DNA from: Stegostoma tigrinum
Lineage: Eukaryota
Direction: 5' to 3'
NCBI RefSeq assembly: GCF_030684315.1
Contig: NC_081362.1
Span: 96,083,187-96,147,186 of the forward strand
Length of the DNA: 64,000 nucleotides
The notes below the pieces were generated by a model, which had not been told where the DNA came from, made no database searches, and saw only the letters and a list, made by a program, of their open reading frames with translations. The position numbers and the translations under genes were made by a program. Below are positions 546-62,645 of this stretch, piece after piece. Each line of letters starts with the position of its first letter. Position 1 is the stretch's first letter.

Positions 546-662
546 TTGGAGGAAGGGGAGTTGTATTATGCTGATATCCAGTTCTTCCGAAAGAAAACTG
601 AACAGCCAGCTACAGTGGTCACTGAGGAGTCAACCGAGTACGCTGCCATCAAATATACATAG
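546..662 (+). CDS. Terminal coding exon of an inhibitory immune receptor (cytoplasmic ITIM + ITSM); Siglec/CD33-like tail layout
   Basis: Acceptor tcattgtgtttcag| at 545, phase 0. Translation LEEGELYYADIQFFRKKTEQPATVVTEESTEYAAIKYT* contains ITIM-like LYYADI (561-578) and ITSM TEYAAI (633-650) just before TAG (660-662). Not in the ORF track. Upstream exons lie outside the window. Confidence 0.8.
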   Translation: MEEGELYYADIQFFRKKTEQPATVVTEESTEYAAIKYT

Positions 663-2799
663 TGACGAGCAATCAGTTCTTCAGCAAGTAATGAAGAGCA
701 GTCTTTGCTGCCATTAACTCCAAAACCAGCAGAACGAAGGACAGTCAATCATCACAATTACTTATTGATATTTCTGCTTGATAATTATTCCAGAATTTGC
801 ATGGTGCAGCTTCCTGGCAGAGTGAAGTCTCTGGGTAGTGAATCCATAAGGTGACCAGATTTTAAATAGCAAGAAACCAGGGTGAGTTTAATGGGCATGG
901 GAAAGTTGGGCATTGCTGAGCTGATTGTTACCACATTGGGTGAACAGTGCAAAGAATCTCAAGGTTAGGCATAGAAATTGGAGTGGGTGGGAAACAGGGG
1001 GAAATAGTTATGTCATGACACTTTTTGGAATATCTTCAGCTGGGGTTCTCTGCTGCAGAAAGTTTTGAAGCTAAAACATTAACTATTTTCAAGATGGAGT
1101 TAGACATAATTCTTGGGGCTAAAGGGATCAAAAGGCATGGGGGCAGGGAAAGCAAGAACAGGGTTGTGAGTTTGACGATCAGCCATCATCATATTGAATG
1201 GCAGATAGGCTTGAAGGGCCACTCCTGTTTTCTCTTTCTCTGGCAGGGGTGTGGTGAGGAGTAGGGAGCGAGGCTGACTATTGGCAGGGAGGATACAGGG
1301 TTCGCTGTGTACAGTGCAACGTGAAGTAATAAGGGTTTCCTTGGAGAGAAACAAACATGTCACACTGACTTTTTCTGAAGTCCTGGTTTACACTCTTAAC
1401 TAAGGAGAGGTGAGAACTGAGTTATTTTAACTATTTTCTGGAAATTGTCAGGAACCCAGAAGACTTTAGAGAAACCAGGACAGTCCCTTAGGAAGCCTGG
1501 GAATCTGGTCACTCCCTGAGCCCACCAACAGCATCATCTGTTAGGATAGTGAGCCTAGTAGAAGCCAAACAGGCCTCCTGTTTAACAAACGTAGCAGGAA
1601 ATTCTCCCTTGTTAAACTTGACAAAATGAAACTGTCCTGGTGGCCAACAACAGCAGAATTCTGGACTCCTGAACCTTGTTCACATGCTTTCCCATGGAAG
1701 GTTCCATTGGACTAGTCTTCGTCATTGCTCATTAACAGAGAAGCAGTGAGCTGATTTGAGAAGAATGACTGTCAGCCATTTCAGTGCCTCATGTAACTGC
1801 ATCAAACAAAATAGAAAGCACTTTGGAGCAGAAATCTTAACAAATTGAAAATTTACTCAAGGCACTTTGGAACGACAAGGATTTTATTTTTATTCAAGTG
1901 CTTACAGCAGGACAGCTAACTGAGAAATAGTGACAAATCAAAATAAAAATACTTGGAATGAACAGAGGGAAGAGTGAATTGGGATGAATGCTCAGTCAAA
2001 GCAGGAATCATTCTTTTCATGGGTTTGTGAGATGGTTTTAATCTGAAGTATGCTGAAGATCGAGTTCAACAGAGCGGATGAGTGGTCATGATCTGCAATC
2101 TTTACCCACTCACCTCTCTCAGCGCCGAACACAAAATTCACACCTTTTATTCTTAAATTGTAAAATGGTATATTGTAGGAATACGTAATGTCATACACTG
2201 TATGTCTCCTGAAATTATTAAGCAGCTTCATTATTTTAGTTTCAGTTTTTGCAATTCTAATGTTCTTGACAAACTGGAGTATACAACTAGATCAGATACG
2301 CAAAGGAGTACTGCATAGTTTATCTCCACATCCAGGTTTAGCTTAGAGAGGATGAAACCAGGACTGGAGTGGGGTGTGAGAGGGGTGGGGAAGCATGGAG
2401 AAACATGGGGAGTGCGGGTGAGTGCAGTGGGCAGAGTTGGCCTTTGACATGAAATTGAGTAGAATGCAACTGTACTCTTTGGAGTATAGAAGAATGAAAA
2501 GTAATCTAATGGAGCATCTCAAGTCATGTTGTTCCTTCACAGCGTAGACACTGCGATGCTGCTTTCCCCCCTGACTGCAGGATGGGGTGGGGACAGGCAT
2601 ACACATTCTCAGGATAAAGGGTTGATTATATTGGATAGAGATGAGGAGACATTTCCTGATCCAGGCACATCTTTTGGATTTAGGACTCCAGAGATCCATG
2701 GGTGTTCTGGACTTGAACATATTCTCCGCAGGAATCAACTGACTTTTTGTCTCTCAGGGAAGTTAAGATTTCTAAAATAGTTATTTCCTTATGTGATGT

Positions 2800-14445: not shown

Positions 14446-17098
14446 AATAAAATGTGAGGCTGGATGAACACAGCAGGCCAAGCAGCATCTCAGGAGCACA
14501 AAAGCTGACGTTTCGGGCCTAGACCCTTCATCAGAGAGGGGGATGGGGGGAGGGAACTGGAATAAATAGGGAGAGAGGGGGAGGCGGACCGAAGATGGAG
14601 AGTAAAGAAGATAGGTGGAGAAGGTGTGGGTGGGGAGGTAGGGAGGGGATAGGTCAGTCCAGGGAAGATGGACAGGTCAAGGAGGTGGGATGAGGTTAGT
14701 AGGTAGCTGGGGGTGCGGCTTGGGGTGGGAGGAAGGGATGGGTGAGAGGAAGAACCGGTTAGGGAGGCAGAGACAGGTTGGACTGGTTTTGGGATGCAGT
14801 GGGTGGGGGGGAAGAGCTGGGCTGGTTGTGTGGTGCAGTGGGGGGAGGGGATGAACTGGGCTGGTTTAGGGATGCAGTGGGGGAAGGGGAGATTTTGAAA
14901 CTGGTGAAGTCCACATTGATACCATATGGCTGCAGGGTTCCCAGGCGGAATATGAGTTGCTGTTCCTGCAACCTTCGGGTGGCATCATTGTGGCAGTGCA
15001 GGAGGCCCATGATGGACATGTCATCAAGAGAATGGGAGGGGGAGTGGAAATGGTTTGCGACTGGGAGGTGCAACCTGCCTGCCCTGGTCGACCAATCGTC
15101 TCAGCCTGCTCCTGCCCCACCGAACTCATCTCCACCTATCTGGACTCCATTTTCTCCCCTTTGGTCCAGGAACTCCCCACCTATGTCCGTGACACCACCC
15201 ACGCCCTCCACCTCCTCCAGGACTTCCAATTCCCTGGCCCCCAACACCTCATATTCACCATGGACGTCCAGTCCCTGTACACCTGCATTCCGCATGGAGA
15301 TGGCCTCAAGGCCCTCCGCTTCTTCCTGTCCCGCAGGCCCGACCAGGCCCCCTCCACCGACACTCTCATCCGCCTAGCGGAACGCGTCCTCACACTCAAC
15401 AACTTCTCTTTTGACTCCTCCCACTTCCTACAGACTAAGGGGGTGGCCATGGGCACCCGCATGGGCCCCAGCTATGCCTGCCTCTTTGTAGGTTACGTGG
15501 AACAGTCCATCTTCCGCACCTACACAGGCCCCAAACCCCACCTCTTCCTCCGGTACATTGATGACTGTATCGGCGCCGCCTCTTGCTCCCCAGAGGAGCT
15601 CGAACAGTTCATCCACTTCACCAACACCTTCCACCCCAACCTTCAGTTCACCTGGGCCATCTCCAGCACATCCCTCACCTTCCTGGACCTCTCAGTCTCC
15701 ATCTCAGGCAACCAGCTTGTAACTGATGTCCATTTCAAGCCCACCGACTCCCACAGCTACCTAGAATACACCTCCTCCCACCCACCCTCCTGCAAAAATT
15801 CCATCCCCTATTCCCAATTCCTCCGCCTCCGCCGCATCTGCTCCCACGATAAGACATTCCACTCCCGCACATCCCAGATGTCCAAGTTCTTTAAGGACCG
15901 CAACTTCCCCCCCACGGTGATTGAGAACGCCCTTGACCGCGTCTCCCGCATTTCCCGCGACACATCCCTCACACCCCGCCCCCGCCACAACCGCCCCAAG
16001 AGGATCCCCCTCGTTCTCACACACCACCCTACCAACCTCCGGATACAACGCATTATCCTCCGACACTTCCGCCATTTACAATCCGACCCCACCACCCAAG
16101 ACATTTTTCCATCCCCACCCCTGTCTGCTTTCCGGAGAGACCACTCTCTCCGTGACTCCCTTGTTCGCTCCACACTGCCCTCCAACCCCACCACACCCGG
16201 CACCTTCCCCTGCAACTGCAGGAAATGCTACACTTGTCCCCACACCTCCTCCCTCACCCCCATCCCAGGCCCCAAGATGACATTCCACATTAAGCAGAGG
16301 TTCACCTGCACATCTGCCAATGTGGTATACTGCATCCACTGTACCCGGTGTGGCTTTCTCTACATTGGGGAAACCAAGCGGAGGCTTGGGGACCGCTTTG
16401 CAGAACACCTCCGCTCAGTTCGCAACAAACAACTGCACCTCCCAGTCGCAAACCATTTCCACTCCCCCTCCCATTCTCTTGATGACATGTCCATCATGGG
16501 CCTCCTGCACTGCCACAATGATGCCACCCGAAGGTTGCAGGAACAGCAACTCATATTCCGCCTGGGAACCCTGCAGCCATATGGTATCAATGTGGACTTC
16601 ACCAGTTTCAAAATCTCCCCTTCCCCCACTGCATCCCTAAACCAGCCCAGTTCATCCCCTCCCCCCACTGCACCACACAACCAGCCCAGCTCTTCCCCTC
16701 CACCCACTGCATCCCAAAACCAGTCCAACCTGTCTCTGCCTCCCTAACCGGTTCTTCCTCTCACCCATCCCTTCCTCCCACCCCAAGCCGCACCCCCAGC
16801 TACCTACTAACCTCATCCCACCTCCTTGACCTGTCCGTCTTCCCTGGACTGATCTATCCCCTCCCTACCTCCCCACCCACACCTTCTCCACCTATCTTCT
16901 TTACTCTCCATCTTCGGTCCGCCTCCCCCTCTCTCCCTATTTATTCCAGTTCCCTCCCCCCATCCCCCTCTCTGATGAAGGGTCTAGGCCCGAAACATCA
17001 GCTTTTGTGCTCCTGAGATGCTGCTTGGCCTGCTGTGTTCATCCAGCCTCACATTTTATTATCTTGGAATCTCCAGCATCTGGAGTTCCCATTATCTG
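14446..17098 (+). mobile_element. Young 5'-truncated Penelope-like element (Neptune-type) with 627-bp inverted arm and 15-bp TSD
   Basis: 14446-15072 is the reverse complement of 16434-17060. TSD TCTCACTTTGATGTT at 14431-14445 and 17099-17113. Confidence 0.92.
15073..16747 (+). CDS. Penelope RT + Zn-linker + GIY-YIG endonuclease (open, N-terminally truncated)
   Basis: GRPIVS, TMDVQSLYT, GVAMGTRMGPSYA, LRYIDD, CRKCYTC linker, NVVYCIHC..YIGETKRRL..RFAEH. The N-terminal ~39 aa of track ORF 14957..16747 is read-through from the inverted arm. Confidence 0.88.
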
Positions 17099-18234
17099 TC
17101 TCACTTTGATGTTGTCAGCTTCCCAGAACCTTTAGAGATGTGCCTGACTAGGTTTCTCTCAGAAGTTTGTCAGACAGCAACTCAATTTACAACCATTATC
17201 CATTTTGTGCTGTCATGTCTAAATACCATATCTTTTAATTTCCTTCCTTTCAGGAATGTGGATTAACAGCAGTAGATCCTGCTCTAAACAAAGGAAACTC
17301 TACTTAGTGATAGCTGCAGTTTTAAAAATCATGCTTACTGGAGCACACTGTGAGTTTATAACATTGTGACTTCATAGAACAGGGAGAGCACAGAGAGACA
17401 CCACAGAGATGAACAGTTCTGAACTGAGGAACAACTGGTGATGGAGGGTGTGCATGCTTGTGGATGTGGTACCAATCAAGCGGCTGCTTTTTCTTGGATG
17501 GTGTGAAGCTTCTTGAGTGCTCTTGGAGTTGCATCCATCCAGGCAAGTGGGGAGTGTTCCACCACACTCCTGGCTTGTTGATTGTGGACAAGCTTTGGGG
17601 AGTCGGGAGGAGAGTTACATCAAAATCGCACACAATATTCCAGGTGTAGTCTTACAAAGGACGTGTTAAGTTGCAGCAAGACATTCCTGCACCTGTATTC
17701 AAATCCTCTCGCTATGAAAACCCTCATGACATTCGCCTACCTTTCAGTGCCTGGTGTTCAAGGACACGCAGATGTCATCACATCTCCCCCTTTTCCCAAT
17801 CTATCACCCTTCAGAAAATAATTGGCCTCCTTTTTTTGTACCAAAGTGGATAACCTCACATTTATCCACATTATCCTGCATCCGTCATGCATTTGCTAGT
17901 CACTCAACTTGTCCAATTCACAGTGAAGCACATCTGCATCCTCATAGTTCACCCTCACATCCAGCGTTGTGTCATCAGCAAACTTGGACACATTGCATTT
18001 AGCTTCCTCATTTAAATCATCAATGTATATTGTGAATAGCTGGGGTCCTAACACTGACACCTGTGATACCTCACTAGTCTACAATTTGGGGAAAGATTTA
18101 TTTATTCTTATTTTTCATTTCCTTTGCCAACCTATTCTCTGTCAGTATCTACCCCCAATCACATGTGTGCTCATGGAACATGTTACTCTGCACTGTGGGA
18201 CCGTATTGAAAGCTTTCTGAAATTAATCTTGCAT

Positions 18235-20003
18235 CAACAGCAAAGAACCCACCTGCCCTGGTCGACCCATCGTCTCAGCCTGCTCCTGCCCCACCGAACT
18301 CATCTCCACCTATCTGGACTCCATTTTCTCCTCTTTGGTCCAGGAACTCCCCATCTACGTCCGTGACACCATCCACGCCCTCCACCTTCTCCAGAACTTC
18401 CAATTCCCTGGCCCCCAACACCTCATTTTCACCATGGACGGCCAGTCCCTATACACCTGTATTCTGCATGCAGATGGCCTCAAGGCCCTCCGCTTCTTCC
18501 TGTCCCGCAGGCCCAACCAGTCCCCCTCCATTGACACCCTCATCCGCCTAGCCAAACTCAACCACTTCTCTTTCACTTCCTCCCACTTCCTACAGACAAA
18601 GGAGGTGGCCATGGGCACCTGCATGGGCCCAAGCTATGCCTGCCTCTTTGTAGGTTACGTGGAACAGTCCCTCTTCCATACCTACACAGGCCCCAAACCC
18701 TACCTCTTCCTCCGTTACATTGATGACTGTATCGGCGCCGCCTCTTGCTCCCAAGAGGAGCTCGAACAGTTCATCTGCTTCATCAACACCTTCCACCCCA
18801 ACCTCAAGTTCACCTGGACCATCTCCAGCACATCCCTCACCTTCCTGGACCTCTCTGTCTCCATCTCAGGTAACCAGCTGGAAACCTATGTCCATTTCAA
18901 ACCCACCGACTCCCACAGCTACCTAGAATACACCTCCTCCCACCCACCCTCCTGCAAAAATTCCACCCCCTTTTCCCAATTCCTTCACCTCCGCCGCATC
19001 TGCTCCCAGGATGAGGCATTCCACTCCCGCACATCCCAGATGTCCACGCTCTTCAACGACTGCAACACCCCCCCTGCTGTGGTCGAGAACGCTCTTGACC
19101 ACGTCTCCTGCATTTCCCGCAACACATTCCTCACACCCTACCCCCGCAACAACCGCCCTAAGAGGATCCCCCTCGTCTTCACACACCACTTCACCAACCT
19201 TTGGATACAACTCATCATCCTCCGACACTTCCGCCATCTACAATCCGACCCCACCGCCCAAGACATTTTTCCATCCCCATCCTTGTCTGCCTTCCAGAGA
19301 GACCACTCCCTCCGTGACTCCCTTGTCCACTCCACAATCCCCTCCAACCCCACCACACCCGGCACATTCCCCTGCAACCGCAGGAAATGCTACACTTGCC
19401 CCCACACCTCCTCCCTCACCCCTATCCCAGGCCCCAAGATGACTTTTCATATTAAGCAGATGTTCACCTGCACATCTGCCAATGTGGTATACTGTATCCA
19501 CTGTACCCAGTGTGGCTTCCTCTACATTGGGGAAACCAAGCAATAAATAACTGCACCTCCCAGTCGCGAACCATTTCAACTCCCCCTCCCATTCCTTAGA
19601 CGACATGTCCATCATGGGCCTCCTGCAGTGCCACAATGATGCCACCGGAAGGTTGCAGGAACAGCAACTCATATTCCGCTTGGGAACCCTGCAGCCCAAT
19701 GGTATCAATGTGGATTTCACAAGCTTCAAAATTTCCCCTTTCCCCACTGCATCACAAAACCAGCCCAGCTCGTCACTGCCTCCCTAACATGTTCTTCCTC
19801 TCACCTATCCCCTCCTCCCACCTCAAGCCACACCTCCATTTCCCACCTACTAACCTCATCCTGCCTCCTTGACCTGTCTGTCCTCTCTGGACTGACCTAT
19901 CCCCTCCCTGGCTCTCTGACGAAGGGTCTAGGCCCGAAACGTCAGCTTTTGTGCTCCTGAGATGCTGCTTGGCCTGCTGTGTTCATTCAGCCTCACATTT
20001 TAT
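18235..20003 (+). mobile_element. Older degenerate Penelope copy (RT + GIY-YIG, internal deletion and stop)
   Basis: ORF 18335..19546 has RYIDD and YIGETKQ*; tail with hammerhead core at 19916. Confidence 0.9.
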
Positions 20004-21430
20004 TACCCTCCCTACCTCCCCACCTATACTCTCTCCACCTATCTTCTTTTCTATCCACACCATCTCCATCTCAGGCAACCAGCTTGTAACTGATGTCCAT
20101 TTCAAGCCCACCGACTCCCACAGCTACCTAGAATACACCTCCTCCCACCCACCCTCCTGCAAAAATTCCATCCCCTATTCCCAATTCCTCCGCCTCCGCC
20201 GCATCTGCTCCCACGATAAGACATTCCACTCCCGCACATCCCAGATGTCCAAGTTCTTCAAGGACCGCAACTTTCCCCCCACGGTGATCGAGAACGCCCT
20301 TGACCGCGTCTCCCGCATTTCCCGCGACACATCCCTCACACCCCGCCCCCGCCACAACCGCCCCAAGAGGATCCCCCTCGTTCTCACACACCACCCTACC
20401 AACCTCCGGATACAACGCAGTATCCTCCGACACTTCCGCCATTTACAATCCGACCCCACCACCCAAGACATTTTCCCATCCCCTCCCCTGTCTGCTTTCC
20501 GGAGAGACCACTCTCTCCGTGACTCCCTTGTTCGCTCCACACTGCCCTCCAACCCCACCACACCCGGCACCTTCACCTGCAACCGCAGGAAATGCTACAC
20601 TTGTCCCCACACCTCCTCCCTCACCCCCATCCCAGGCCCCAAGATGGCATTCCACATTAAGCAGAGGTTCACCTGCACATCTGCCAATGTGGTATACTGC
20701 ATCCACTGTACCCGGTGTGGCTTCCTCTACATTGGGGAAACCAAGCGGAGGCTTGGGGACCGCTTTGCAGAACACCTCCGCTCAGTTCGCAACAAACAAC
20801 TGCACCTCCCAGTCGCAAACCATTTCCACTCCCCCTCCCATTCTTTAGATGACATGTCCATCATGGGCCTCCTGCACTGCCACAATGATGCCACCCGAAG
20901 GTTGCAGGAACAGCAACTCATATTCCGCCTGGGAACCCTGCAGCCATATGGTATCAATGTGGACTTCACCAGTTTCAAAATCTCCCCTTCCCCTACTGCA
21001 TCCCTAAACCAGCCCAGTTCATCCCCTCCCCCCACTGCACCACACAACCAGCCCAGCTCTTCCCCCCCACCCACTGCATCCCAAAACCAGTCCAACCTGT
21101 CTCTGCCTCCCTAACCGGTTCTTCCTCTCACCCATCCCTTCCTCCCACCCCAAGCCGCACCCCCAGCTACCTACTAACCTCATCCCACCTCCTTGACCTG
21201 TCCGTCTTCCCTGGACTGACCTATCCCCTCCCTACCTCCCCACCTACACTCTCTCCACCTATCTTCTTTACTCTCCATCTTCGGTCCGCCTCCCCCTCTC
21301 TCCCTATTTATTCCAGTTCCCTCCCCCCATCCCCCTCTCTGATGAAGGGTCTTGGCCCGAAACGTCAGCTTTTGTGCTCCTGAGATGCTGCTTGGCCTGC
21401 TGTGTTCATCCAGCCTCACATTTTATTATC
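20004..21430 (+). mobile_element. Third Penelope copy (3' half), in tandem with the previous one
   Basis: ~20060-21430 is nearly identical to ~15699-17062 and is preceded by a short 3'-UTR fragment. Confidence 0.9.
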
Positions 21431-35205: not shown

Positions 35206-36733
35206 CTCATTTTATTGGCTGAGGAACTTATCTCAAGTCTGTTTTGTTGATCCTCTTATTTCATGGCCATCAATTTATTCAATTGGACTAAAGACAGAGG
35301 ATTAATTTAGGGATTCTCTGGTTTTAAATAATAGAAAATCTGACACCTTTTCCCAATCCTTTAATCACTCCTATCAATGGGCTTTGATCATGGTTTATTT
35401 AGAGTCTTCTTAACTATCCTGTCTACATGTTACACAAACTTACTCCCCGTGCTTTCTAAATTCTCATCAAAATCATTTGTATAAATGACAAATAAAAGTG
35501 GATCAAGCTCTGATCCTGTGTAACACTGATAGTAACATGGCTTCAACCCAAAATAAAAACTTCACCACCACTCCTTGACTCCTCCTGTTAACTCAACTTT
35601 AAGAGGGTTCTGCTATAACGTGTGTTCCGGCAATGCAAATTGGCTATAACACAATTGACAAATAGGGGAATGCTACGCCTAAAATGTGAACTTGTGTTGG
35701 CAATAACGTGAGTCCATCAGTCAGCATCTTGTTATCAGGAGCCCTTTGCTAAAGGTTCCTACAGTGTACTTGTGATCAGGATCTAGCTGGAAGGAGGATA
35801 TGAAGAAGGCAATGTTCACGATTTGAGGGGGACACTGCCTACAGTTGCTGTAATCTACTGATGCTCAGGCTGGTATCATGTGGCTCATCATGGCTCTACG
35901 TTCACCCTTTTAGACTAGCACTTCAAGCAAGCTCCAGTAGGTCATGGTTGAGATGTATCTCAATTCCATTTACGTATCTTTGCTCCATAACCGTCACATG
36001 TAAAATACTCATTCTTGTTATCAAATCTTCTGCAGCCTTACTAACCTAGATTTCTGTATTCTCAAACAATCCCACAACTCCCTCTGATAGACCTGTGTAC
36101 TTCCAGTTTCAGCCTCTTGCACACCTGATTTTCATTGCTATACCATACTTACCTTATTCGCAGCTGCCCAACTCCAAAGTTTTGCCATTTCCTCTCTCGT
36201 CTTCTCAAAAACATTCCTGAAACTGACTTCAACCATCAGCTTTCCTCATCTGGCCTGGTGTTGGTTCTTGTTCAGTATTCCGGAGTAACTGGTTGCTTCA
36301 TTCAATTCATCCATACAATGGTTTGGCCTCAGCTGTTTCCTGTGGCAGAGTATTTCACAGGCTCCCCACTTGCTGGGTGAAGACAATTCTTCTCAAGGGC
36401 TACTTGAGATGAACAACAAGTGCTGGCATGGCCATGTCACAAGAATGGCTGAATCTGTACCAGATAGAGACAGGAGAATGTTAAACACAGCACTGAGAGA
36501 AAACAAGATGAAGAAGCAGAAAGACAGGGAGAAGAGAAAAAGTTTGTGATTTAGGAACTAGTCCTAGAGAAGAAACAGTTTATTCTACCAGTGGGTATAA
36601 CAAGAGGAAATTTTACATTAACATCAAGCTCTCTGCTTTCTCTTTGCCAGAGGAATTTAATGCATTCTGCTCTCCAGTAAATCCATGTGGAAGGGTTTGC
36701 TGCGCAGGATTATTTAAGGTAAACAGGATTTAC

Positions 36734-37077
36734 CAGTTACAGTCAGCTGGGATCCATTCCCACTGATACCTCCCCACACTTTACAGTAATAGACGCCAGT
36801 GGCACTGGGCTGCACGTTTGTGATGGTCAGAATGAAGCTGTTATTGGAGGCGTCTCTGAAGACTGGAATTGCTCAGTGAATCCTGGGCTCCACTGTGTGT
36901 TGTTCCTCACATCATGCGTGAAAATCCATTCCATGTTGTTCCCCGGTTGCTCCCAGTGCCAGTGAATGTTGGTGTATATCACTGCAGCATTCCTCCTGGT
37001 GCACTGTAACCGGGCAATGTGACCCTCAGTGACACGTTCCAGGATCAGAGACTGGAGAAGGGCTGAGGCATTTGCAT
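36734..37077 (-). pseudogene. Pseudogenised germline-joined VJ-type Ig domain exon
   Basis: ANASALLQSLILERVTEGHIARLQCTRRNAAVIYTNIHWHWEQPGNNMEWIFTHDVRNNTQWSPGFTEQFQS/fs/RDASNNSFILTITNVQPSATGVYYCKVWGGISGNGSQLTVT, donor G|GTAAAT. It is 344 nt versus 345 nt for the paralogue (1-nt deletion near 36858). The acceptor reads tcg| instead of ag|. 66/114 aa identical to 62301-62645 by manual alignment. Confidence 0.88.
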
Positions 37078-38295: not shown

Positions 38296-40538
38296 AGAAC
38301 ATAGAACATAGAAAAGTACAGCACAGTACAGGCCCTTCGGCCCACGATGTTGTGCCGTGGAATAATCCTAATCCAAAAATAAAATAACCTAACCTACATT
38401 CCCCTCAATTCACTGCTGTCCATGTGCATGTCCAGCAGTCGCTTAAATGTCACTAATGACTCCGCTTCCACAACTACCACTGGTAAACTATTCCATGCGC
38501 TCACAACTCTCTGGGTGAAGAACCTCCCTCTGACGTCTCCTCTATACCTTCCTCCTAACACCTTAAAAACATGAGCCCTCGTGGCAGTCAATCCTGCCCT
38601 GGGGAAAAGTCTCTGGCTATCAACTCTATCCATGCCTCTCATTACCTCGTACACCTCGATCAGGTCACCTCTCTTCCTCCTTCTCTCCAGAGAGAAAAGT
38701 CCGAGCTCAGTCAACCTGTCCTCATAAGACAAACCCTCCAGTCCAGGCAGCATCCTGGTAAACCTCCTTTGCACCCTCTCCAAAGCCTCCACATCTTTCC
38801 TATAATAGGGCGACCAGAACTGGACACAATATTCCAAGTGTGGTCTCACCGGGGTTTTGTAGAGCTGCAGCATAACCTCGTGCCTCTTAAACTCGATCCC
38901 CCTGTTAATGAAAGCCAAAACACCATATGCTTTCTTAACAAGCGTATCCACCTGGGTGGCAACTTTGAGGGAGCAATGCACTTGAACGCCAAGATCCCAT
39001 TGTTCCTCCACACTGCCGAGAATCCTGCCTTTAATCCAATATTCAGCATTTAAGTTCGACCTTCCAAAATGCATCGCTTCGCACTTATCCAGGTTGAACT
39101 CCATCTGCCATTTCTCAGGCCAGCTCTGCATTCTGTCAATGTCTCACTGAAGCCTGCAATAGCCCTCGATACTATCAACGGCACCTCCAACCTTTGTGTC
39201 ATCAGCAAACATACTAACCCACCCCTCAACCTCCTCATCCAAGTCATTTATAAAAACTACAAAGAGCAGAGACCCAAGAACAGAGCCCTGCGGGTCACCA
39301 CACAGCACTGACCTCCAGGCAGAATACTTACCATCTACAACCACTCTCTGCCTCCTGTCAGCCAACCAATTCTGAATCCAGACAGCTAATTCACCCTGTA
39401 TCCCATACCCCTGACTCTATGAATGAGCCTGCCATGGGGAACCTTATCAAATGCCTTGCTGAAGTCCATGTACACCACATCCACTGCTCAACCCTCGTCA
39501 ACCTGTCTCGTGACTTCCTCAAAGAACTAAATAAGATTTGTAAGGCATGACCTGCCCCTCACAAAGCCATACTAACTCCCTTTAATCACGCTCTGCTTTT
39601 CCAAATAGTCATAAATCCTATCCCCCAGAATTCTTTCTAAAACCTTGCTGACCACAGACGTAAGATTGACTGGTCTGTAATTTCCAGGGATTTCCCTATT
39701 CCCTTTCTAGAAAAGAGGAACAACATTTGCCTCCTTCCAATCTTCCGGCACGACTCCCGTGGAGAGTGAGGAAGCAAAGATCTTCACCAGCGGCTTAGAA
39801 ACCTCCTTTCTCACTTCCTGGAGCAACCTAGGATAAATCTGGTCTGGCCCTGGGGACTTATCAATCTTAATGTTTGTCAAAATTTCCAGCACATCAACTT
39901 CCTCAATCTTGATCTGTTCAAGCCTGTTTTCCTCCTCCTCAAAGTTCTCATTCACAACAAGGTCCCTTTCCTTACTGTAACCGGAAGCAAAAAAACTCAT
40001 TTAGGGCTTCCCCTATCTGCTCAGATTCCACGCACAAGTTCCCTACGCTATCCCTGATCGGCCCTACCTTCTCCCTGATCATTCTCTTATTCCTCACGTA
40101 TGAGTAAAATGCCTTTGGGTTCTCCCTAATCCTTCCTGCCAAGCCTTTTTCGTGCCCCCTCCTGGCCCTCCTCAGCCCACTTTTGAGCTCCTTCCGAGCA
40201 AGGCCATAATCCTCTAAAGCTGTGCTAGACCCTTGCTTCCTCCACTTTACGTACGCTGCCTTTTTCTTTTTGACAAGAAGCACCACTGTACGCGTCATCC
40301 AAGGCTCCTTAATCTTACCCCTTCTTACCTGTCTCAGAGGAACAAATTTATACATCACTCGCAACAACTGCTCCTTAAACAGCCTCCACATGTCTGCTGT
40401 GCCCTTTTTGTGGAACAATTGCTCCCAATCTGTACTTCCCAACTCCAGTCTGATAGCGTCATAGTTTCCTTTACTCCAGTTAAATATCTTCCCCTGGTAA
40501 CTGCTGCTTTCCCTTTCCATGGCTATGGTAAATGTGAG
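38296..40538 (-). mobile_element. Young CR1 LINE, 5'-truncated (RT and 3' UTR)
   Basis: ORFs 39972..40640, 39707..40000 (KSPGPDQIYPR), 39144..39365 (PQGSVLG..FADDTK) and 38394..39131; (TAGAACA)n tail at 38295-38312. Confidence 0.93.
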
Positions 40539-40539
40539 A

Positions 40540-41033
40540 CTCTTGCAGCCCAATGGTATCAACGTGGACTTCACAAGCTTCAAAATCTCCCCTCCCCCCA
40601 CTGCATCACAAAACCAGCCCAGCTCGTCCTCTCGCCACACTGCATCCCAAAACCAGCTCAGCCTGTCTCTGCCTCCCTAACCTGTTCTTCCTCTCAACCA
40701 TCCCTTCCTCCCACCCCAAGCCGCACCTCCATTTCCTACCTACTAACCTCATCCCACCTCCTTGACCTGTCCGTCTTCCCTGGACTGACCTATCCCCTCA
40801 CTACCTCCCCACCTATACTCTCCTCTCCACCTATCTACTTTTCCCTCCATCTTCGGTCCACCTCCCCCTCCCTCCCTATTTATTCCAGAACCCTCACCCC
40901 GTCCCCCTCTCTGATGAAGGGTCTAGGCCCGAAACGTCAGCTTTTGTGCTCCTGAGATGCTGCTTGGCCTGCTGTGTTCATCCAGCTTCACACTTTATTA
41001 TCTTGGATTTATCTGCAGTTCCCATTATCTCTG
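40540..41033 (+). mobile_element. Penelope 3' fragment fused head-to-head with the CR1
   Basis: TGCAGCCCAATGGTATCAACGTGGAC.. through the tail, with hammerhead core at 40911. Confidence 0.88.
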
Positions 41034-51110: not shown

Positions 51111-51162
51111 ATGATCAGTGGAACTCTATTTGCTGTGACCCTGTCCCTCTGTGTTGCTTTGG
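51111..51162 (+). CDS. Leader (signal peptide) exon of a VJ-type IgSF gene
   Basis: gaaATG; MISGTLFAVTLSLCVAL+G, followed by a perfect donor G|GTAAGT. Phase 1 joins in frame to 62301 (..VAL-G-ANAPVLFQSP), the classic split Ig/TCR leader. Confidence 0.82.
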
Positions 51163-60139: not shown

Positions 60140-61575
60140 TAGAACATAGAACATAGAAATGCAGCACAGTACAGGCCCTTCGTCCCACGATGTTGTGCCA
60201 TGGAATAATTCTAATCCCAAAATAAAATAACCTAACCTACATTCCCCTCAATTCACTGCTGTCCATGTGCATGTCCAGCAGTCACTTAAATGTCACTAAT
60301 GACTCCTTTTTTTAATCAACTTCCTCAATCTTGATCTGTTCAAGCCTGTTTTCCTGCTCCTCAAAGTTCTCATTCACAACAAGGTCCCTTTCGTTAGTGA
60401 AAACCTAAGCAAAAAACTCATTTAGGGCTTCCCCTATCTGCTCAGACTCCACGCACAAGTTCCCTATGCTATCCCTGATCGGCCCTACCTTCTCCCTGAT
60501 CATTCTCTTATTCCTCACGTATGAGTAAAGTGCCTTTGGGTTCTCCCTAATCCTTCCTGCCAAGCCTTTGTCCTGTACCCTCCTGGCCCTCCTCAGTCCA
60601 CTTTTGAGCTCCTTCCGAGCAAGCCTGTAATCCTCGAAAGCTGTGCTAGACCCTTGCTTCCTCCAGTTTACGTACACTGCCTTTTTCTTTTTGACAAGAA
60701 GCACCTCTGTACCCGTCATCCAAGGCTCCTTAATCTTACCCCTTCTTACCTGTCTCAGAGGAACAAATTTATACATCACTCGCAACAACTGCTCCTTAAA
60801 CAGCCTCCACATGTCTGCTGTGCCCTTTCTGTGGAACAATTGCTCCCAATCTGTACTTCCCAACTCCTGTCTGATAGCGTCATAGTTTCGTTTACCCCAG
60901 TTAAATATCTTCCCCTGGTAACTGCTGCTTTCCCTTTCCATGGCTATGGTAAATGTGAGGCTGTTGTGTTCACTGTCGCCAAAGTGTTCTCCGACCACGA
61001 GATCTGACACCTGTCCTGGCACATTGCTGAGCACCAAATCCAAAATGGCCTCCCCCCTCATCGGCCTTTCCACATACTGAGTAAGGAATCCCTCCTGAAC
61101 ACACCTGACAAAAACAGCTCCATCCAAACCATCTGCACTAAGGAGGTTCCAATCTATACTGGGAAAGTTGAAGTCACCCATAACAACGTTTGCACTTTTC
61201 AGCAATCTGCTGGCCTATGAGTTCTTCAATCTCCCGACTGCTATTTTGGGGTCTGTAGAAAACCCCCAGTGATGTGACTGCTCCCTTGCTGTTCCTAACT
61301 TCCACCCACACTGACTCAGTCGACAAACCTTCCTCGGCAGCCTCAGCCCATACCACCTCAGTAGATGAGTCCTGATCAAAAGTTCTTTCAGCTGCCGTTA
61401 TACTATCCTTGGACCAACAAAGCCACACCTCCCCCTCCTTTACCACCTTCCCTGGCCTTAATGAAAGATCTAAACCCTGGAACCTGCAACATCCAATCCT
61501 GACCTGCTCTATCCATGTCTCCGAAATGGCCACAACATTGAAGTCCCAGGTCCCTATCCAAGCTGCAAGCTCACC
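60140..61575 (-). mobile_element. Young CR1 with internal deletion of the RT region
   Basis: The 3' terminal ~165 bp (matching 38296-38465) is joined at ~60305-60315 to sequence matching ~39893 onward. ORFs 60405..61205 (GDFNFPSIDW, DSEHN) and 61174..61611 (AISETW). Confidence 0.9.
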
Positions 61576-62071
61576 TCCCTTATCACCTACCTGGAGGGAG
61601 AAACTCCCCATTACCCCCCAGACTGCCCCCGGTACCCTAGCCTGCGGAGCGGCTTCAGTTTGCTGAGGCTGTAGAAGCTGTATCTCTGTTAGTCTTTGAC
61701 GATATCTTCCCCCTTAAAATACAGCCTGGCTTCCTCTTCTAATGCAGCAGCCTCTTCTCAGTTCCAATCGTCACATTTGCTGTGTGTCGTGAGGAAGCCT
61801 CTCCCATGATGAATAGTCCAGGGAAGAGAATTGCAGTGTGTGGAAAGTTAACTTGTGTCAGGCAGCGGTTGGACAGCGTGAGCTCAACATGTCCCTGTTA
61901 CAACAACATCTGTGTTGCTGTTCTCAGCACACAGTGACTGAGAGCCAGGATACCAAGCACCATCAAACGATCACAGCTGGCACTGGCAATTTGTCCCCTC
62001 TTTGTACAGGACTCAGGCTGCTGGCAGGGAGACTTTAAACCCTGGCGGGAGCTTAGAACATTCAGACAACA

Positions 62072-62300: not shown

Positions 62301-62645
62301 GTGCAAATGCCCCAGTCCTTTTCCAGTCTCCGACCCTGCAATGTGTCACAGAGGGTCACACTGCCCGACTGCAGTGCACCATGAGTAACGCAGCAGTAAC
62401 GCACGTCAATGTTCACTGGTACCAAGGACGACCAGGACTTCGGGCGAAGAGGATTTTGACACATGACCAATGGAATCGGGTGTACAGGTATTCAGGACTC
62501 GGTGACCGATTCCAGCCTTCCAAAGACCCCTCCAGTAATAGCTTCATTCTGACCATCACAAACGTGCAGCCCAGTGACACTGGGGTCTATTATTGCTCAG
62601 TCTGGGGAAGGATTTATGGGAGAGGAAGCCTGCTCAATATCACCA
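62301..62645 (+). CDS. Intact V-set Ig domain exon with germline-joined J-like segment (non-rearranging antigen-receptor-like gene)
   Basis: Acceptor ttattttgaag|, donor A|GTGAGT, 345 nt, phase 1-1. (G)ANAPVLFQSPTLQCVTEGHTARLQCTMSNAAVTHVNVHWYQGRPGLRAKRILTHDQWNRVYRYSGLGDRFQPSKDPSSNSFILTITNVQPSDTGVYYCSVWGRIYGRGSLLNIT has the B-strand Cys, WYQ..PG, DRF, DTGVYYC and YGxG..L.I. No RSS. Confidence 0.93.

Follow-up and report, generated by a model that had tools for sequence, protein, structure and literature searches.

A terminal ITIM/ITSM exon of Stegostoma tigrinum closes a four-VJ receptor gene in a likely paired, light-chain-like receptor family of cartilaginous fish

The first few hundred nucleotides of a 64,000-bp window of the Stegostoma tigrinum genome (the window being the whole stretch of DNA analysed, G000:C11:96083187-96147186; C11 numbering is used for parts outside it) encode a short peptide with two tyrosine motifs and a stop. 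Which gene does this peptide close, how would its product signal, and where did its ectodomain come from? The exon at 546-662 follows a tttcag acceptor in phase 0 and translates as LEEGELYYADIQFFRKKTEQPATVVTEESTEYAAIKYT. With an ITIM defined as (S/I/V/L)xYxx(I/V/L) and an ITSM as TxYxx(V/I) (PMC12151841, in part), LYYADI satisfies the first definition and TEYAAI the second, and their tyrosines lie 24 residues apart. This ITIM..ITSM..stop layout occurs once in the window compared with 3 of 100 shuffles (mean 0.03), and a search of the tail peptide against the PDB returned a single chance match (E 0.79). The short exon proposed by the first-pass annotation is thus real, although it is hidden, as was claimed, only from the ORF track, since the public NCBI model XP_059504760.1 contains it.

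This exon is spliced on as the last one of gene A, an intact receptor gene that lies upstream and whose coordinates are collected in Table 1 with those of a second gene, gene B. Gene A codes for a 594-aa protein with a leader, four single-exon VJ domains, an uncharged TM and three tyrosine motifs in the tail (TVYATV, LYYADI and TEYAAI). In both genes all joins are in frame and every junction is GT-AG, and gene A as spliced from the genome is identical letter for letter to the automatic NCBI model; NCBI isoform P0008 has an N-terminus derived from a repeat. Pfam analysis revealed four V-set domains without C1 in the gene A ectodomain, which carries 19 N-glycosylation sequons. The earlier conjecture that an upstream paralogue ends in this exon therefore held, the ectodomain upstream consisting of four VJ domains and not of a Siglec or CD22. 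Single-sequence AlphaFold of gene A gave a mean pLDDT of 49.7, the TM helix alone being confident.

Splicing into 546 was borne out by contigs of relatives from runs X1-X5, classed as RNA by the tool's guess only; four runs were aligned, two of which span the junction into 546. The X3 and X5 contigs, from two studies of organism B, join the preceding cytoplasmic exon (C11:96080774) to C11:96083732 (window 546), skipping a GT..AG intron; in the X5 contig, 222 letters precede the tail, compared with 221 expected from the TM and two cytoplasmic exons. Alignments of the X1 and X2 contigs start exactly at the first base of the exon. Direct RNA support thus comes from one junction (cytoplasmic exon 2 to 546) in relatives, while V-to-TM splicing is drawn from splice sites and the NCBI model. 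Past the tested part of the 3' UTR, an AATAAA lies near window 1942.

The intact VJ gene of the window, which the first-pass annotation had placed on the same strand as the exon, is indeed on the forward strand and corresponds to the first VJ exon of gene B, an intact gene coding for a 482-aa protein with three VJ exons, a TM, two small exons and a tail. The paralogous tail anticipated beyond this VJ gene was found as well (Table 1). A candidate gene B leader near window 62100 was in the wrong phase, and the leader at 51111 was taken instead. Relative to an inverted paralogue at C11:96.70 Mb, the first VJ exon of gene B appears likely to be a V1/V2 chimaera, suggesting that unequal crossing-over likely alters domain number. 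Most of the long ORFs of the window (14870-21114, 38394-40676 and 60405-61713) resemble, as judged by eye, fragments of non-LTR retroelements.

Table 1. Position, strand and evidence of the receptor gene features in and around the window.
Feature	Position	Strand	Evidence
Gene A leader exon	C11:96034571	+	genome splicing
Gene A VJ exons (four)	C11:96059179, 96067717, 96069787, 96072425	+	genome splicing
Gene A TM exon	C11:96076959	+	genome splicing
Gene A cytoplasmic exons	C11:96079035 (TVYATV), 96080734	+	genome splicing
Gene A terminal coding exon, ITIM (LYYADI), ITSM (TEYAAI), stop	window 546..662	+	sequence, splice acceptor, RNA-type contigs
Gene A 3' UTR, coverage by RNA-type contigs of relatives, as far as tested	window 663..1314	+	contig alignment
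Gene B leader exon (MISGTLFAVTLSLCVALG), phase 1	window 51111..51162	+	genome splicing
Gene B VJ exon 1 (VJ gene of the first-pass annotation)	window 62301..62645	+	genome splicing
Gene B VJ exons 2 and 3, past the window	C11:96147541, 96149680	+	genome splicing
Gene B TM exon	C11:96150567	+	genome splicing
Gene B cytoplasmic exons	C11:96153609, 96154775	+	genome splicing
Gene B terminal exon, CHYAEV..SEYAVV	C11:96155896, 8.7 kb past the window	+	homologous to gene A tail
Frameshifted VJ pseudo-exon of the receptor family, inverted	window 36702..37075	-	sequence likeness

Both genes belong to a large cluster. In 814 kb picked around matches within C11:95.98-97.79 Mb, VJ exons, intact or as remnants, number about 55 and TM exons 16; the terminal exons are of ITIM type in six cases, and two tails are of ITAM type. 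Members lie on both strands, and many are broken. Gene A has GULO about 170 kb upstream; contig C44 carries MHC class I and C55 the TCR/IgH V genes, neither being on C11. A PLAC8 synteny search gave no match, and its control was likewise without any match. Single VJ exons that we take to be NCR3-like occur on the MHC contig (C44:11314642, 20242847 and 20291811) and are distant from the family. In the 1.0 Mb scanned, no C1 exon was found under conditions that detected the C60 positive control, nor was any strict RSS; a relaxed scan gave 50 scattered RSS-like sites, none of which lies on the forward strand near the ten V-exon ends checked. No octamer was seen upstream of the receptor leaders examined. 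Of the five leaders examined, by plain count, four are preceded by a CTTCCTCT box that we take to be PU.1-like and one by a variant differing in a single base, which hints that the receptors may be expressed in myeloid or B cells; the label 'NK-type' attached to them earlier is unsupported.

Some members of the cluster depart from this plan. At C11:97363259-97367900 (+), a VJ exon runs straight into about 1400 Asn/Ser/Thr/Gly-rich repeat residues within a 1546-aa ORF, with which a TM exon at C11:97374064 goes, giving a member with a giant, probably glycosylated stalk. One ITAM-type gene has a short Tyr-motif cytoplasmic exon repeated seven times in tandem (C11:96516580-96517089, -). The tails at C11:96178930 and 97303629 (+) are neither ITIM nor ITAM, and their homologues carry YENI-type and YANY-type Tyr motifs.

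How far does the family extend? A search with the fourth V domain of gene A returned 80 homologous proteins, and those that were named came from sharks and rays. Pattern matching assigned A-type tails to 21 of them, drawn from 11 species of sharks and rays; none of these 21 has lost either terminal tyrosine or TxYxx[IV], the first tail tyrosine is missing in 2/21, and some carry M at pY-2 or T at pY+3. The other tails comprise 11 of B type, in which the first motif is non-canonical (CHYAEV), six with a YENI/V-type motif alone, 27 other or incomplete ones, and 15 with an ITAM, YxxL-x6-8-Yxx[LI] (one of these being a fused model). A charged TM residue was seen in 1 of 63 TMs. A profile search of 1.84 billion representatives added 131 new proteins among its best 150 matches, 18 of which score at least 86 bits per domain, the next scoring 63. 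Ten of these 18 were looked up; six were from a chimaera (Callorhinchus) and three from elasmobranchs, and one chimaera protein has a leader, three VJ domains and a TM. The family is thus present in sharks, rays and a chimaera, and no bony-vertebrate member was seen among the named homologues and the best 150 profile matches. NCBI gives 'SIRPa-like' to gene A, and 'SIRPa-like', 'pIgR-like' and others across the family, with unrelated names on close paralogues. By title and abstract opening, the literature yielded no paper on the family, though full texts and supplements may mention its genes. The Elephant-shark genome supplement (PMC3964593) contains no ITIM, VJ-type or NKp30 text, and the rows searched of a single-cell marker table (PMC11372145 supplement) of the bamboo shark, whose orthologues include XP_043551181.1 and its neighbours, contain no known family member; we regard this chondrichthyan receptor family, and its likely pairing, as apparently undescribed. 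That table lists as a myeloid/HSC marker LOC122553189, numbered next to family gene LOC122553190; the marker is a lead only.

In gene A, an ITIM and an ITSM occupy the predicted cytoplasmic tail behind a TM, the sequence criterion by which inhibitory receptors are recognised, and by analogy the product is very probably an inhibitory receptor. The ITAM-bearing members suggest that it does not act alone. In eight of ten species, the best V domain of an ITAM member is 95-98% identical to that of an ITIM member of the same species and 70-94% identical to those of other species; the ten species sets were chosen by hand, and two carpet sharks tie or reverse. The first V exon of gene A shares a 758-bp island (94%) with that of gene D, whose ITAM is interrupted by a phase-0 intron. 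Homogenisation limited to exons is a mark of the paired CEACAMs (PMC5112662, in part). Because ITAM and ITIM members have near-identical V domains within species, we read the cluster, with good though slightly lesser confidence, as a paired receptor system: it appears to link activating and inhibitory members with near-identical ectodomains, as paired receptors do. Of the shark family of VJ-domain inhibitory receptors first envisaged, the VJ receptors with ITIM tails stand; the ectodomains have several tandem VJ domains, not one, and the receptors are paired with ITAM siblings.

In the genome, the C11 V exons find their nearest relatives in the V genes at C60:3.37-3.63 Mb; searching back from these gives the C11 exons next. 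We identified the C60 genes as sigma-2 because they match the skate 'type I' chain, which PMC5192425 (in part) equates with sigma-2 and whose genes it describes as split or germline-joined. On C60, some V and J segments are flanked by RSS and some are germline-joined, with C1 exons downstream. Family V domains are on average 42% identical to sigma-2, an identity inflated by the slow evolution of sigma-2, and 23-32% identical to ten other groups, whose class labels are our own assignment; sigma-2 itself averages 36% with kappa and 35% with lambda, labels assigned likewise. At the DNA level, blastn of the family against sigma-2 gave 68-78% identity over framework 3. All 134 distinct family joints, matched by pattern, are of one length, six residues separating Cys from the J motif, with the consensus C-x-V-W-G-x-I-[YSF]-G-x-G. 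Among 47 parsed sigma-2 chains (of 64), three carry CEVWGYI[FY]GGG, the joint of a germline-joined gene of carpet sharks, whose length and VWG.I motif are the same as in the family. The special tie between the family V and sigma-2 is well supported. A germline-joined sigma-2 gene with a six-residue CDR3 and counterparts in two other carpet sharks lies at C60:3633697-3634029 (+), on a long basal branch of sigma-2. At C282:118240-118527 (-) is a germline-joined light-chain-like VJ exon with a C1-like match nearby, which groups with sigma-2 and coelacanth sigma-2, yet is only about 41% identical. In the PDB, the window V and the C282 V matched antibodies, for the most part engineered molecules with several domains, the ranking following domain count. 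The small contig that holds sigma-2 has a second cluster of single-exon VJ genes (C60:7.85-8.60 Mb), which is unrelated.

The direction of this relation is not well supported by the V-domain trees. Three domains were left out of the 97-row tree and one TCR row out of the outgroup tree by parsing, and near-duplicates were thinned in the 45-row, outgroup and J-column trees. The family and sigma-2 (with C282) group at 97/92 in the 97-row tree and 96/94 in the 45-row tree, both of about 105 columns, and a light-chain clade without the family was rejected (p=0.037). Support fell to 83/51 once non-rearranging outgroups were added, and a family placed outside all rearranging receptors was not rejected (AU p=0.544, 1.02 lnL better). 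Coelacanth sigma-2 joins shark sigma-2 and leaves the family as sister (90/84), nesting not being rejected (p=0.24). With CDR3 and J columns and chimaera members, the tree collapses to a polytomy without a single clade for either the family or sigma-2, and the family and antigen receptors together split from NCR3-like and other VJ outgroups at 97/93.

Two origins have to be weighed against these results. We lean towards the VJ domain being a re-joined light chain, whose V-J joint RAG would have produced a single time in the germline, as the phylogeny and the joint would have it. The same paired receptors could instead carry a pre-RAG relic, an exon that never underwent splitting and is, among survivors, the closest sister of the one that the RAG transposon invaded, to whose ancestor slow sigma-2 stayed nearest. 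We consider this relic unlikely. The AU test does not reject it, the 97/93 split is in its favour, and so are the failure to find an RSS at the ten V-exon ends checked or a C1 exon within 1.0 Mb, the presence of the family on both sides of the chimaera-elasmobranch split, and the fact that sharks retain such relics, UrIg and UrIg2 (PMC12227049, in part); however, the family is closer to sigma-2 than sigma-2 is to kappa or lambda despite its faster evolution, the locus adjoins GULO and neither the MHC contig nor the TCR/IgH V genes, the homologues named include no bony-vertebrate member, and shark light chains are often germline-joined (PMC5192425, in part).

Our preferred explanation, to which we give a probability of about 0.6 as a whole, is that the exon is the tail of a likely inhibitory four-VJ receptor in a likely paired cluster of cartilaginous fish, with VJ domains likely derived from a germline-joined sigma-2 exon. 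Ligand binding would cluster the receptor and a Src-family kinase would phosphorylate the tail tyrosines, as in PD-1 and CEACAM biology; the ITIM/ITSM pair would then dock the two SH2 domains of SHP-2 or SHP-1, damping activation. The ITAM siblings would recognise that ligand too, signal through Syk/ZAP-70, and probably serve as decoys against microbes exploiting the inhibitory member. The germline-joined exon would have parted from its constant exon, acquired exons for a TM and for signalling, and multiplied in tandem. Marginally favoured is the fuller history in which a RAG-made light-chain joint was fixed in the germline of early cartilaginous fish and, freed of its constant domain, founded an innate ITIM/ITAM paired-receptor family that lasted in sharks, rays and chimaeras. 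As the outer domains are closest to one antibody light-chain class, parts of antibodies were likely turned into fixed sensors of innate immunity, and with a fixed CDR3 diversity would be owed to the number of genes, the shuffling of domains and point change, and not to recombination.

Little is known of the inhibitory and paired receptors on the leukocytes of cartilaginous fish, and here a large conserved cluster was masked by misleading automatic names. For shark leukocytes it offers markers and an SHP-1/2 pathway open to testing, and either origin touches a long-standing question. If the re-joined light chain is true, innate receptors can be assembled from recycled antigen-receptor exons, and finding a VJ exon unsplit is in itself no evidence of a pre-RAG relic. 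If the relic is true, the family is closer to rearranging V than the NCR3-like genes tested and is a candidate relative of the RAG-invaded gene.

It is improbable that the family is a divergent member of a described one (SIRP, NITR, NILT, PRARP or a named shark VJ family), its light-chain likeness being convergence or an old exon replacement. The NCBI name of gene A and the generic layout of its tail would suit such a membership, but the family has no C1 or C2 domain, its likeness to sigma-2 extends to DNA, NCBI names of close paralogues are many and unrelated, and NCR3-like, CD300-like and Siglec-like V exons of the same genome fall outside its clade. SIRP ectodomains are built of V + C1 + C1 and SIRP is linked to NSFL1C; gene A has four V-set and no C1-set domains, no C1 exon lies in the 1.0 Mb, and SEP-domain genes, the candidates for NSFL1C, are on C5 and C23, none on C11. 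Siglecs, CD22 and CD33 have one V-set domain followed by C2-set domains, an identity excluded by the four VJ domains of gene A, and a V exon on C53 that we take to be Siglec-like falls with the outgroups in the tree. NCR3/NKp30 is a single VJ domain, MHC-linked, with a charged TM; MHC I on C44, the separate clade of NCR3-like exons and the uncharged family TM set the family apart from a shark NCR3. Very improbable is a tail that mainly serves as a SAP/EAT-2 switch or endocytosis signal, making gene A context-dependent or scavenging, as its two TxYxx[VI] motifs (TxYxxV in cytoplasmic exon 1 besides the terminal TxYxxI) would allow, given that the first tyrosine is lost in 2/21 A-type tails whereas the ITIM/ITSM tyrosines are kept in all, and that TEYA[AT]IxY and YADIQF resemble the SHP-2-binding consensus of PD-1 (PMC12151841, in part).

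Among known systems, sigma-2 (sigma-cart, type I, NS5) is like the family in V framework, CDR2 length, an FTDRFQPSRD-type motif, the CxVW..I[FY]GxGT joint and a split phase-1 leader, and has germline-joined copies. In contrast to sigma-2 genes, which form a V-J-C1 cluster with RSS or a germline joint and no TM, the family lies on a different chromosome without RSS, C1 exon or octamer and sets tandem VJ domains on a TM and signalling tail. SIRP-alpha shares with gene A an ITIM followed by TEYA[AT]I about 24 residues later, and so does PD-1 (PMC12151841, in part). According to that source, the PD-1 ITSM consensus is (T/V)EYATIx(F/Y), which TEYAAIKY of gene A nearly fits, and SHP-1/SHP-2 binding sites are conserved across jawed vertebrates; PD-1, however, has one V domain and is a single-copy gene, whereas the family comprises many genes and sets VJ domains in tandem, with four of them in gene A. 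UrIg, UrIg2 and NCR3 resemble the family in their unsplit VJ exon, split leader and occurrence in cartilaginous fish, but the VJ of UrIg and UrIg2 is accompanied by C1 domains, and both genes belong to the MHC or AgR complex (PMC12227049, in part); UrIg/UrIg2 and PRARP require C1 domain(s) after the VJ, which the family lacks. Teleost NILTs and NITRs are likewise clustered V-domain receptors with ITIM or ITAM, but compared by description of domains their architecture differs, the NILT V being NKp44-like with extra cysteines and most NITRs having a V plus a V/C2 domain (PMC3022915, in part). CEACAM1/CEACAM3 come close in organisation, with clustered ITIM/ITSM and intrinsic-ITAM members, homogenised N-terminal V exons and inverted copies (PMC5112662, in part), but the ectodomain of the family consists solely of antigen-receptor-type VJ domains. 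Paired receptors are a known kind, and it is the antibody-light-chain-like tandem VJ ectodomain that is new.
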